Positions 33,559-50,528 of a stretch of 53,082 nt of DNA are shown here, piece by piece. Location: the NCBI GenBank assembly GCA_016866975.1, contig VGKP01000003.1:1-53082 (forward strand), in the 5' to 3' direction. Within the stretch, counting starts at the first letter, position 1. The number at the start of each line of letters is the position of its first letter. The DNA is from Candidatus Pacearchaeota archaeon (GTDB lineage: Archaea; Nanobdellota; Nanobdellia; Pacearchaeales; GW2011-AR1). The notes under the pieces were generated by a model. That model saw only the letters and a program-made list of their open reading frames with translations, was not told the DNA's origin and ran no database searches. The translations under genes were made by a program, and so were the position numbers.

Positions 33559-33680
33559 ATCAAAAAAACGATGCGCCACTGCGGCTTAAAAGCCGAGGTT
33601 TGTTGCAGGCGCTCGTTTTTGGAGATGCTCGGGAACCACCACACCTTGAAAGGTGTGGTTTTCATCGGTTCCCGACATAA
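33559..33680 (+). mobile_element. Hairpin element copy 4 (chimeric A'/A + B)
   Basis: The left arm CTGCGGC (A') is paired with the right arm GCCGAGG (A). Confidence 0.92.
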
Positions 33681-33725
33681 AATTGCAGGTAGTGAAGGAA
33701 CATTATTAGCTCTGAAATATTAAAT

Positions 33726-34379
33726 TTATGAGGGTTCAACTTCTATCTTCTTTCCATTAACAGTAAATAATTTAGAATCAACTCCCTCAGTAAGATGCAC
33801 AATTCCTTTTTCAACCTCGTAGCTTTCAATCACTCTTGGGAGAAAGCGATATTTAGGAAATCTAATCCAATGATCCCACTCTGAAAGCCTTGTCTTTCCT
33901 ACATGATGATATCTCTTAAACTGATACATCCAATTCCAAGCCACAATATAAAGAGTCCTTCTATTAACATATTTTTCCTTAATAGTTCCAATTCTACCAA
34001 TATCTCTAGTTAAATCAAAAAAACGATGCGCCACTGCGGCTTAAAAGCCGCAGTTTGATGCAGGCGCTCGTTTTTTGGATGCTCAAGGAACAACTCCAGC
34101 TTAAAAGCTGGAGTTTTAGTCAAGTTCCTTGACATAATAAAATCCAAGTCCCCAGCAAGTAGTTTTATTCCTCTCCCCCCATTTCATTTCATGATCAAGT
34201 TTTCGCCATGATTTATGAATATATTCTTCATCAGACTGCTTTGCAAAAGCAACTTCTAAATCAACTTTCTCGTCTAGTAAATCAATACCAGGGGCAGGAT
34301 TGTTTTTCATATTTAGAACTTTCGCAGCCCAGAACTCATTCAGATGAAAGAAAGTCCCGTTAAAATGCCTGTGATCCAT
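33726..34379 (-). pseudogene. One hypothetical gene (about 178 aa) split by an antisense hairpin-element insertion
   Basis: ORFs 34116-34379 and 33726-34034 share a frame (offset 345 nt). Removing the element joins ...GLGFYY to (D)LTRDIG... Confidence 0.7.
34014..34137 (+). mobile_element. Hairpin element copy 5 (A' + C), intragenic
   Basis: ATCA-aaaaaacgatgcgccactgcggcttaaaagccgcag...caaggaac...gttcctt-GACATAA. Confidence 0.93.
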
Positions 34380-34991
34380 CTAACCCAGCCATCTCAATTT
34401 TCCAGGCCTAGGCTCATAGACAAGCCCATCTTCAAGAAGTTTCTTTATTTCTTCATTTATTGTATGCGGCGATTCTTTTGATTGCAATATTATCTTCTCA
34501 ATATCTACTCCACCATCTTTCTCCGCATTCTTCACCATCTCCAATATCCCGTCTTTTAATGCCAATAATTTAGTAGTGTCCTGAGACTTTGGCTTGTTCG
34601 ACTCTATCTCCAATTTCCTTACCAAGAGAAAAGAAGGATCTTTCTTCTTCAGGATATCAGGAGTTAGGTAAATCTCATTGTTCCAAGACCTTAGGAGACC
34701 AATTATCTGCACCGTGTCTCCTTGATTTAATCCTTCAAACTTTTCGATATCATCTCCAAATGTCTTTGCCTTAATTTGCCCAGTAGCATCATCAAGTGTC
34801 AAAGAACCAAATTTCTTCTCCCCATCTTGTATATACTTATCGACTACATTTGCAATTAAATTGACTCTGACTACATGCTTGTCTCCAATCTCAAGGAACT
34901 TTATCCTCTCCCCTTCAAGTATAGGTTTTCCAGTCAATAGAGAACTGATATGATATTTATAAGCTACATTTCTCTTGAATTGCTGTTCCAT
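34380..34991 (-). CDS. RPA32-like OB-fold ssDNA-binding protein with C-terminal wHTH
   Basis: VRVNLIANVV...LTLDDATGQIKAK and LLEDGLVYEPRPG motifs. Confidence 0.8.
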   Translation of the reverse strand: MEQQFKRNVAYKYHISSLLTGKPILEGERIKFLEIGDKHVVRVNLIANVVDKYIQDGEKKFGSLTLDDATGQIKAKTFGDDIEKFEGLNQGDTVQIIGLLRSWNNEIYLTPDILKKKDPSFLLVRKLEIESNKPKSQDTTKLLALKDGILEMVKNAEKDGGVDIEKIILQSKESPHTINEEIKKLLEDGLVYEPRPGKLRWLG

Positions 34992-35040
34992 AGTACTTTT
35001 TGACAACTTGCCCTTTTAAGTTTTTATGTGAAATAAAACA

Positions 35041-35373
35041 TTAAAAAATATCATCTTTTCTCGCGTCAGTAGTTATTTCTTCACCATTTATTATATCTCT
35101 TATGGCAATATCGCACATATTTTTCAAATCCTGGACAGTATTTGGATTGTTAGAATGGTTAACATATCTCTCAGGCTCTGAATAGAGATGGATAACTCCT
35201 TTTTGAGAATGAGTAAACTTCTTCTCTTCTTCAGATAAATTATGATATTCTTCCTCAGTTAATGAAGTGAGATGATATCTGATAACTATCTTTCCTTTCC
35301 TGAAGTCCCTATTGGCAAATGCCCCTTTATCAAACTGATCTATATTTGATTTTTTAATGATTACATCTTTCAT
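35041..35373 (-). CDS. SET-domain protein
   Basis: KGAFANRDFRKG, RYVNHSNNPN and RDIINGEEITTD motifs. The usual terminal Tyr is replaced by Ala. Confidence 0.8.
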   Translation of the reverse strand: MKDVIIKKSNIDQFDKGAFANRDFRKGKIVIRYHLTSLTEEEYHNLSEEEKKFTHSQKGVIHLYSEPERYVNHSNNPNTVQDLKNMCDIAIRDIINGEEITTDARKDDIF

Positions 35374-35374
35374 A

Positions 35375-48539: not shown

Positions 48540-48541
48540 AA

Positions 48542-48663
48542 ATCAAAAAAACGATGCGCCACTGCGGCTTAAAAGCCGCAGTTTGATGCAGGCGCTCGTT
48601 TTTGGAGATGCTCGGGAACCACCACACCTTGAAAGGTGTGGCTTTCATCGGTTCCCGACATAA
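48542..48663 (+). mobile_element. Hairpin element copy 10 (A' + B)
   Basis: A' stem CTGCGGC/GCCGCAG followed by module B. Confidence 0.93.
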
Positions 48664-48711
48664 AGAACAATCTTTCAGTTCTTTTAAAAAGCATGTTATC
48701 TCAATACATCG

Positions 48712-49524
48712 ATGAAAAAAGAATTTGTAGTAGTCTATCTCCTAGGAGGACTATCCCATAGATTTGGAGGAGGGATAAAGTCTTTGGCACCAATAGGCAA
48801 GAGTGGAGAGTCTCTTCTCGAGATATCTATGAGACAAGCCGCAAAATCGCATCCTTCTCGGTTCGTCTTTATCGTGGGCCCAACCACTAAAAAAGCATAT
48901 GAAGAAAGGTTAGGACACACATTTTTCAATATCCCTATCCATTATTCAATACAATCTTTCGATCCGGTAATAAGGGACAAGCCTTGGGGCACAGCAGACG
49001 CTCTTTGCGCAGCCATTGATAATATCAATAGCGCCTTCGTGATTTGTAATGGGGACGATTTATATGGAGATTCATCTTTCAGGCAGGCAAGACAATTTCT
49101 CCTAGAAAACAACACTTGTGTTAACATAGGATACCGCTTGATTGAGGTTGTCCCAGATGAAGGGGAAGTCAACAGGGCAATAATACATGCTAATCAGGAA
49201 GGTAATATCCAGGGCATGAAAGAGGAATTCAAGTTAACCCTAGCCAGAATAAATGGCCAGGAATTTCATGCAGATTCACTTTGCAGCATGAACTTTTTTG
49301 GAATGATACCTTCAATCCTTCCAAAGATAAGGCAGAAAGTCACTAAATTTAAGACTGATAATTTAGATGATAGAAAAACAGAGTGTCTCCTTCCTCAAGT
49401 CATCAATGAACTTATTACTGAGAAGCAAGTAGTTTTCAAGGTACTCCCTGCCCAGGAAAGATGGATAGGCATAACTTATGCTTCAGACGTCGAAAAAGCG
49501 AAGAAATATTTCCTGGAACAATAG
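48712..49524 (+). CDS. Sugar-phosphate nucleotidyltransferase family protein
   Basis: GGLSHRFGGGIK, KPWGTADA, CNGDDLYG, ECLLP and WIGITY motifs. Confidence 0.82.
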   Translation: MKKEFVVVYLLGGLSHRFGGGIKSLAPIGKSGESLLEISMRQAAKSHPSRFVFIVGPTTKKAYEERLGHTFFNIPIHYSIQSFDPVIRDKPWGTADALCAAIDNINSAFVICNGDDLYGDSSFRQARQFLLENNTCVNIGYRLIEVVPDEGEVNRAIIHANQEGNIQGMKEEFKLTLARINGQEFHADSLCSMNFFGMIPSILPKIRQKVTKFKTDNLDDRKTECLLPQVINELITEKQVVFKVLPAQERWIGITYASDVEKAKKYFLEQ

Positions 49525-49550
49525 GTCAGATCATATGCTTCTTAGCATAT

Positions 49551-50409
49551 CTATTTATCAGCTAAAATATGCTCCTTGCGCGTGAACAAGGATCTTGTAA
49601 ACCAATACATTGAGTACAACTCGAATGCAAAAGGAAAATATCCTAAGTATCCTAGAATTGGCATCTCAAATATTTTGAAGAAACCTACAAAAGGCACATT
49701 ATAAGTCCATTTAGGAACTGCCCAGTAATTCCAGAATTCCCATAGGAATCCCATCACTATACCTGCAAGAAGCAATGATAAAGGAATTGCAAGTTTCCTG
49801 TCTTTCAAGTGCCCTATTATACTTGGCTGCCCATGCATATAATTTATAGGGTCCAGGAAGAAGAAGAAGCTAAGCCATACAAGAGGGAATGTGAATACAG
49901 GCAATATTAACGGAGATACAAAACAAGCAACTCCAAGACCAATCATGGTATGTAAGAATATCTTGGATATTCTAAAACTTTTTTTTAATTTCTTTCTATC
50001 AAAGAGATGGATTCCCCTTATCAGTTCAACTGTCTCAAAAAATGCAGGTAATACCGTTGCAAATGACAAAGTCCCAAACAGGTTTATCAAAGTGCTTAGT
50101 CTTGAGGTACCTTCATAATTCCAGTTAGAGACAGATAAATTGATGAACTCAAATAACCACCAGAACAAAGCTGACATCACAACCATCCCGAGAAAGGTGG
50201 GAAACCTGTTGCTGATCAGGGAATTACCTCTAAGCTTATACACTAACGCATCGATAGACAGTATATAACCTGCCCATATTATTGGGAAATACCAGCTTGC
50301 AAATGGTTCTAGCTTAAAGAAAAAATTTAACTCCATTAATACAATCAGTATTATGCCTATCAATCCATACCACTTAAATCCTCTTTTCACAATAATCAGA
50401 GAAATCACA
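49551..50409 (-). CDS. Conserved multi-pass membrane protein; start region hit by hairpin element copy 11
   Basis: WEFWNYWA...KW-Y...KIFEMPILGYLGY motif. The N-terminal extension in the ORF track is element-derived. Confidence 0.65.
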
Positions 50410-50528
50410 AAAACGATGCGCCACCTCGGCTTAAAAGCCGAGGTTTGTTGCAGGCGCTCGTTTTTGGAGATGCTCAAGGAACAACTCCAGCTTAAAAGCT
50501 GGAGTTTTAGTCAAGTTCCTTGACATAA
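50404..50528 (+). mobile_element. Hairpin element copy 11 (A + B-type junction + C)
   Basis: ggagatgctc (B junction) followed by aaggaac (C stem). Confidence 0.92.

Follow-up and report, generated by a model that had tools for sequence, protein, structure and literature searches.

The window analysed here, a stretch of 53,082 nucleotides (contig VGKP01000003.1, positions 1 to 53,082, of the Candidatus Pacearchaeota archaeon assembly GCA_016866975.1), carries many copies of a repeat of about 122 bases made up of two bulged hairpins, whose geometry has been preserved across species through compensatory changes in the stems. These repeats are best explained as a family of small, non-autonomous mobile DNA elements of Pacearchaeota-type DPANN archaea, which insert at a fixed tetranucleotide junction with neither terminal inverted repeats nor target duplication, and which are probably moved as single-stranded DNA by a HUH-like enzyme, in a manner akin to IS200/IS605 ends or to repetitive extragenic palindromic (REP) sequences. 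The source genome, coded G000 (806 kb in 31 contigs, 89% complete), contains about 65 copies. Its contigs are called C1, C2 and so on, the window being C3; other G codes stand for congeneric genomes and L codes for loci fetched from them. The GC content of the window is 39%, and its genes include those for MCM, RPA, aRF1 and a KH-domain protein. The head of the element, the 15-mer AAAACGATGCGCCAC, occurs 11 times in the window by sequence count, every time on the plus strand, against a chance expectation of 0.02. Eight copies, all plus, lie within 33559-50528, and four more copies or fragments are found elsewhere in the window.

In order, each element consists of ATCA, a left hairpin module (A or A'), GGATGC as linker, a right hairpin module (B or C) and CAT(A)A. 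The geometry of the two modules is the same: above a lower stem stands an upper stem of 9-10 bp capped by a T(A/G)AA loop, and on the 3' side 7-9 bases, TTT first, are left unpaired. Reading of the window copies bears out the four stem pairs listed in an earlier note on this DNA (CCTCGG/CCGAGG, CTGCGG/CCGCAG, CCACAC/GTGTGG and CTCCAG/CTGGAG), and the module layout given there stands as to stems, loop and TTT-led bulge; the lone A placed between the two stems does not, since it pairs with the first T of the bulge in the minimum-energy fold, where the 5' strand is continuous and a bulge of 7-8 nt lies on the 3' side. Folding energies run from -62 to -68 kcal/mol (z about -9) and are equally good for both strands. 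The two modules of a copy always fold on the same strand, and a genome-wide blind scan for the bulged-hairpin shape returned about 96 hairpins of this family and 4 unrelated ones.

The strongest evidence for the fold comes from other genomes. R1, a covariance model of the left module built from G000's own copies, finds matches in 13 of 16 congeners, up to 55 per genome, and 80 loci fetched from ten congeners make up, with G000, an alignment set from 11 congeneric genomes, for which 500 shuffles and slid (register-shifted) alignments served as controls. Among the left modules (94 aligned, 75 distinct), 95.8% of the cells are paired, as against 39-54% in the slid controls; 16 of the 23 pairs show two-sided change, with 201 two-sided cells compared to 60 in the shuffles. 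The right modules of the fetched loci have the same shape with many differing stems, and when left and right modules are placed on a single fold (95 distinct sequences), 95.0% of the cells are paired (slid controls across both analyses, 36-54%), 17 of 19 pairs have changed on both sides, and there are 420 two-sided cells versus 111 in the shuffles. No shuffle among the 500 equalled the observed percentage paired or the covariation score. R2, a model built from eight right modules alone, matches left-module cores in register (model positions 6-45, 31-37 bits); four upper stems have been found in both left and right positions, and the hairpin that serves as B in G000 belongs to a left module in G016. 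Each module position is occupied by over 25 different stem sequences, with the geometry unchanged. The proposal of one shared fold with covarying stems is thus upheld, covariation exceeding that of the shuffles in the 11 genomes. The related proposal that selection acts on shape holds to the extent that pairing is kept by compensatory change across species; sequence motifs are conserved as well, namely ATCA, CGATG(C/T)GCCAC, the TTTG/TTTT start of the bulge, GGATGC, the TC...GA foot of the right module, and CAT.A.

Only about 1% of the cells are G-U-type pairs, and the one-sided changes (16-18) are far fewer than the two-sided ones (201-420). Such scarcity of G-U-type pairs is expected of pairing in DNA and would be unusual for RNA. 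Together with the insertion into genes in either orientation, the chromosomal orientation and the inverted loops described below, it supports the conclusion that the repeat hairpins act as DNA rather than RNA.

In a few copies the loop is inverted with the stems unchanged, TTAAAA becoming TTTTAA or TTGAAA becoming TTTCAA. Flipped loops are found at C1:38852, C1:39345, C1:46348 and C6:34162 of G000, and also in L100 versus L102, L050 and L092; eight stem types occur with both loop orientations (TAAA/TTTA or TGAA/TTCA), the T(A/G)AA form accounting for more than 90% of copies. Three of the four flipped copies in G000 lie at 38.8-46.3 kb of C1, where copy orientation switches. Intrastrand template switching, or conversion between oppositely oriented palindromes, gives loop inversion of this kind.

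Insertion and chromosomal orientation

The copies and associated features of the window are as follows, with the type codes of the mosaic copies.

4292..4413, plus strand: copy 1, a variant of A (GGATTGAAAACC loop region) with B
4414..4493, plus strand: copy 2, abutting copy 1; left module truncated at its 5' end, then a short simple hairpin; ends GACATAA
12470..12564, plus strand: truncated complex copy lacking its 5' part; simple TC...GA hairpin, linker and module C; 78.9 bits with R2
29734..29855, plus strand: copy 3, A+B
31340..31612, minus strand: group I intron match (Rfam, 81.5 bits)
33559..33680, plus strand: copy 4, chimeric left hairpin, type-1 linker and module B; code 22111111
33726..34379, minus strand: gene split by copy 5, now two open reading frames (ORFs), 34379-34116 and 34034-33726
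34014..34137, plus strand: copy 5, A'+C, 120 nt after ATCA; inside the conserved minus-strand gene
37448..37672, plus strand: copy 6, complex; two additional TC...GA hairpins within the A' loop, two more simple hairpins, and a C-type module ending GACATCA; its R1 match spans 114 nt
40023..40086: two tandem 32-nt purine-rich units (AGGAAAAGGAGAAAG...), immediately upstream of copy 7
40104..40225, plus strand: copy 7, A+B, 118 nt after ATCA; parental type 1
46636..46759, plus strand: copy 8, A+C recombinant with its crossover between bulge and linker; code 11112222
47265..48254, plus strand: EamA-family gene (Pfam EamA match) broken by copy 9, its N-terminal 32 codons severed
47352..47475, plus strand: copy 9, A'+C; within the EamA transporter gene
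48542..48663, plus strand: copy 10, A'+B recombinant, the sole copy of that pairing in G000; code 22221111
50404..50528, plus strand: copy 11, A, type-1 linker GGAGATGC and module C; 121 nt; code 11111222
52973..53082, plus strand: copy 12, A'+C; ends at the contig end

Composite elements of up to about 330 nt, with simple hairpins TC(A/G)(A/G)G...C(T/C)(T/C)GA nested in the left-module loop or lying between the modules, form a class of their own, seen in the window at 37448-37672 and 12470-12564 and elsewhere in G000 at C2:40550, C13:7460, C8:120 and C24:4555.

Two of the insertions can be undone exactly. Orthologues of the gene split by copy 5 in five congeners align over the junction without a gap, and removal of exactly 120 nt restores the gene; the EamA orthologue in G016 (contig C25) is uninterrupted, and deleting exactly 120 nt of copy 9 restores the frame. 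MutS-like, NUDIX-like and HAD-like genes are also interrupted in G000. Conservation ends sharply at ATCA and at CAT.A; ATCA is conserved at 93-100%, and AT.A varies at its third base in 8 of 42 copies, among otherwise identical ones. The flanks of the copies show no target duplication (mean 0.95 vs 0.81, p 0.22), and the ends no terminal inverted repeats, with just 4-6 of 25 end positions in agreement.

Groups of nine and of eight mutually identical copies are present in G000. Across the order, the element was found in 17 of the 121 genomes sampled, and counts among the congeners range from 0 to 55, three of the 16 being without any; the 764-kb contig of the near-complete relative G136 has just two. 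Between species the elements are 78-92% identical, compared to 64-70% for the flanking genes. Gene interiors hold 13% of copies versus 54-56% of random or ATCA sites, a depletion, and the copies inside ORFs lie in both orientations.

Some intragenic copies are read through. Copy 8 lies in frame after codon 5 of an AAA_18 (kinase-like) ORF at 46627-47268 and is read straight through, moving the P-loop about 41 residues downstream of the start codon, with no alternative start past the element. On the reverse strand, the 120-nt type has an open frame of 40 codons that starts at the ATG formed by the CATAA end; at C8:6533 and C19:4469 this frame continues into the hydrophobic N-termini of ORFs of 1068 and 1488 codons. 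Read-through as a general rule was rejected, as stops are present in some frames of type 1, which is 118 nt long: the frame is kept only by the 120-nt type, most intragenic insertions break the gene, and the in-frame cases, about 4 of 9, are not enriched.

Copy orientation follows long-range chromosomal polarity, not the neighbouring genes. In G000, 59 of 65 copies have the majority orientation of their contig, where 47.6 would be expected (p < 5e-5). There the C-rich strand carries the element sequence (ATCA...CATAA) in 20 of 23 contigs (p 0.0005) and, counted by copy, in 53 of 63 cases. G008, a second species, has about 10 of 11 copies on the C-rich strand, and on its contig C4 copies of opposite orientation at 58 and 108 kb lie on either side of a change of sign in the skew near 55-60 kb. 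Flanking genes, on the other hand, predict orientation poorly (68 opposite, 45 same), and the 11 copies counted on the window contig are all plus across blocks of minus and plus genes. The polarity appears to reflect the direction of replication.

The mobilising enzyme and alternative readings

The hairpins of IS608 are read by a dimeric Y1 enzyme, and the element inserts next to a tetranucleotide with no gain or loss of bases, in a process coupled to the lagging-strand template (PMC3201880, PMC6006769). By analogy, the repeat described here would move as single-stranded DNA at replication forks, and one dimeric enzyme of the HUH/Y1 kind, which reads structure, would recognise the left and right ends by the two hairpins. 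If, as is the usual rule, the G-rich strand serves as template for the lagging strand, the active strand would be the complement, 5'-T.AT|GTC...TGAT-3', with T.AT the target and TGAT the end that belongs to the element; that the third base of AT.A varies speaks for AT.A as the target. On that complement the last bases of the bulge, immediately 5' of the upper hairpin foot, are CAAA or AAAA, and these unpaired bases would occupy the place of the IS608 guide tetranucleotide at each of the two hairpins.

Two types of Y1 transposase of the IS200/IS605 family are encoded in G000, scoring 78 and 131 bits as IS200-type, above the IS200 cut-off; the archaeal Y1 proteins found by Quentin et al., 2018 were of the IS200 type only (PMC6006769). 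One of the two is the tnpA at C10:122-589, with the ATCA end of a truncated left module 22 nt away, upstream of a thioredoxin-reductase-like gene; the contig ends C21:1-180 and C10:1-127 overlap as reverse complements over 127 nt, which places tnpA beside that module. The other belongs to a multi-copy element that breaks contigs and whose right-end hairpin is unrelated to the repeat modules:

C6:1-230 and C12:26680-26912: second IS200-like element; right end with the hairpin CCCCACGG-TCTTG-CCGTGGGG, then AGCTTCAC

At about 700-890 of L015 (G009:C123), a homologue of the C10 transposase (60% identical) is interrupted by a related multi-hairpin element ending GACATAA. Neither TnpB nor a reverse transcriptase was found in G000. 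None of 80 tested IMG/VR stretches, as possible viral carriers, holds a module; 106 stretches share the head 15-mer, which is about what chance predicts. Two Xer-like tyrosine recombinase genes are present in G000 off the window contig, at C7:17134-17604 and C22:9129-9602, which is one beyond the usual expectation for an archaeon of such size.

A number of observations weigh against movement by a Y1 or other HUH-like enzyme. The GC skew partly follows gene orientation, and an Orc1/Cdc6 gene on contig C4 lies between one plus and two minus copies with no change of skew there. The empty-site models with ATCA and with AT.A as the target are a single base apart, at a residue that varies among the orthologues. 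In its variable part the bulge shows no covariation with the constant ATCA in the sequences inspected by eye, and the hairpins directly abut the element ends, where those of IS608 stand 19 and 10 nt away. The bulged modules are absent from the ends of both resident Y1 elements, which carry unrelated simple hairpins, and R1 found no module beside any of 18 fetched Y1 loci. No Y1 gene was found in the assemblies of 5 of the 13 element-bearing congeners; among the Y1-negative genomes is G005, 91% complete, which has 55 matches including near-identical copies. Finally, no autonomous version carrying an ORF turned up among 80 loci of the genus and 80 of the genome collection (about 170 loci overall).

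One alternative, rather unlikely, is that the elements are moved or maintained by an unrecognised enzyme outside the Y1/HUH group, part of a novel structure-reading system of single-strand DNA transposition or copying in Pacearchaeota. It might make use of a core replication or repair protein that acts on the bulged-hairpin geometry at forks, and it would account for burst genomes with no transposase, such as G005, and for the missing autonomous copies.

It is less likely still that the repeats are polar DNA sites serving the host, that is, domesticated REP-like repeats whose hairpins a host protein uses in replication, chromosome organisation or the handling of Okazaki fragments; the one-strand orientation would then be a result of selection, as with KOPS or Chi, rather than of the mode of insertion. 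The orientation along chromosomal polarity, the higher identity of the elements than of their flanking genes between species, the conserved motifs with their predominant loop orientation, and the failure to find a cognate transposase all agree with such sites. Their irregular spacing, the conserved genes split by copies, and the many identical copies within a genome, which point to recent bursts, do not; nor does a copy number that varies so widely among congeners, with three of them and most of the order lacking the element.

The covariation might in principle come from RNA folding, the repeats being small RNA genes, riboregulators or terminators, and the predicted folds are indeed strong and the elements mostly intergenic. 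This is very unlikely, however, given the rarity of G-U-type pairs and of one-sided changes, the equal folding of both strands, an orientation that is independent of neighbouring genes (as in the window contig) and the copies lying inside ORFs in either orientation. Moreover, no element matches Rfam 15 at gathering score, the window yielding only the group I intron and three tRNAs. Lastly, the size and copy number of the repeats are typical of MITEs (miniature inverted-repeat transposable elements), cut and pasted as double-stranded DNA by a DDE transposase, and the AT on both sides of every copy (ATCA..., ...CAT.A) could be read as a 2-bp target duplication; the lack of terminal inverted repeats, flanking repeats at chance level with no duplication past the fixed bases, and a strict one-strand orientation that would be unexpected for DDE elements make this very unlikely too.

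Two further candidates were rejected. An integron-like array of attC sites and gene cassettes does not fit intervals that hold several genes each, among them core genes (MCM, RPA, aRF1, a class-I tRNA synthetase), nor copies that interrupt genes, nor tyrosine recombinases that are both on other contigs. Bulge-helix-bulge introns would have a pair of 3-nt bulges flanking a 4-bp helix, and there is none.

Exchange of modules between copies

All four pairings of left and right modules reported in the earlier note are seen in the window: A+B at 29734 and 40104, A'+B at 48542, A+C at 46636, and A'+C at 34014, 47352 and 52973. The assembled sequence likewise confirms both crossovers described there, one in the loop of copy 4 at 33559, which joins the 5' arm CTGCGG of A' to the 3' arm CCGAGG of A (with one mismatch and one G-T), and one at the right-module junction of copy 11, where the type-1 linker is joined to module C inside 7 shared bases. 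Shuffling is not free, however. Every combination exists, yet the parental A+B and A'+C dominate: left and right types pair as A'C in 20 cases, AB in 15, AC in 4 and A'B in 1 (Fisher p 1.6e-6), and the 45 canonical copies of G000 comprise 15 of pure type 1 (A+B, 118 nt), 18 of pure type 2 (A'+C, 120 nt) and 12 mosaics.

Breakpoints occur in every interval between distinguishing sites, within shared tracts of only 7-17 nt. The data do not support a crossover hot spot in the loop: the longer a shared tract, the more breakpoints it holds, roughly in proportion. The three main chimera types, told apart by their type-distinguishing codes, are each present at two loci with unrelated flanks:

33559 and C12:13541
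46636 and C7:1645
50404 and C15:13282

Since each type recurs in this way, it is simplest to suppose that chimeras seldom arise and are afterwards copied, so that exchange between copies is real without being as frequent as had been proposed. Template switching or short-patch conversion among the many copies in the same orientation would be the most likely route. That copies 4, 11 and the other mosaics are products of the assembler is scarcely credible, even for a fragmented metagenome assembly in which many contigs end within repeat copies, given the twin loci of each main chimera type, similar module swaps in independently assembled genomes, and type-distinguishing sites that lie 14-20 nt apart at each junction, from which it would follow that the longer k-mers must derive from real reads.

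Known hairpin repeats and the place of the family

The closest likeness is to the ends of IS200/IS605 elements, for which IS608 is the model, and to their cargo-less derivatives, the palindrome-associated transposable elements (PATEs). As there, one-strand hairpins lie near both ends and are alike in shape, which one dimeric enzyme would require; insertion occurs beside a fixed tetranucleotide with no target base gained or lost; chromosomal polarity goes with orientation; there are unpaired bases beside the hairpin foot; and Y1 transposases of the family are encoded in the same genome. The repeats differ from both in their hairpins, which are of about 19 bp, two-tiered, with a one-sided bulge of 7-9 nt, and abut the ends, and in that neither a Y1 element with matching ends nor an autonomous parent was found, 5 of 13 element-bearing congeners having no detectable Y1 gene at all.

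With the REP, BIME and REPIN sequences that depend on RAYT (TnpA-REP) proteins, the family shares short, abundant and mostly extragenic hairpin repeats without coding capacity, several subfamilies per genome, and, since REPs are recognised as single-stranded DNA structures, possibly the form in which it is read. It differs in that its two hairpins are direct and not inverted, in having no GTAG-type or GT(A/G)G tetranucleotide on the 5' side (the ends being ATCA and CAT.A), and in that copies also insert into genes. No RAYT was found in G000, where the Y1 proteins score 31 bits against a RAYT model cut-off of 80, and the repeats near the C10 Y1 gene amount to one truncated module, not the flanking expected of a RAYT.

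Rickettsia palindromic elements, like other intragenic prokaryotic repeats, offer a further parallel: they too form hairpins, are about 100-150 bp long and occur in a reduced genome, some of them in frame inside ORFs, as are the copies here at window position 46636 and at C8:6533 and C19:4469; unlike them, most intragenic insertions here break the gene. The double-hairpin elements of Allomyces mitochondria and the hairpin repeats of sponge mitochondria look mobile, have an unknown mobilising enzyme and keep their stems paired as the sequence changes. They share the two-hairpin architecture, although they are eukaryotic and organellar and have no sequence or end motifs in common with the present family, and to our knowledge no replication-linked orientation has been reported for organellar hairpin repeats. 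No description of such repeats in DPANN archaea was found in the literature searched. The elements would belong to a known kind, hairpin-ended repeats that move as single-stranded DNA; what is new is the pair of two-tier bulged hairpins, the modular exchange and the missing enzyme.

Very small as DPANN genomes are, those of this lineage tolerate dozens of active hairpin elements, with the split genes, N-terminal extensions and recombination substrates that they bring. The repeats also constitute a natural experiment on what a DNA-hairpin-reading enzyme needs, with many stems, one geometry and a small number of fixed single-stranded bases. Should a Y1 transposase prove to move the elements, this would be the first archaeal REP- or PATE-like system to be worked out; otherwise, the family would represent a new way of moving DNA. 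The strict strand polarity of the copies could also be used to mark the direction of replication in genomes of uncultured archaea that have no clear GC skew.

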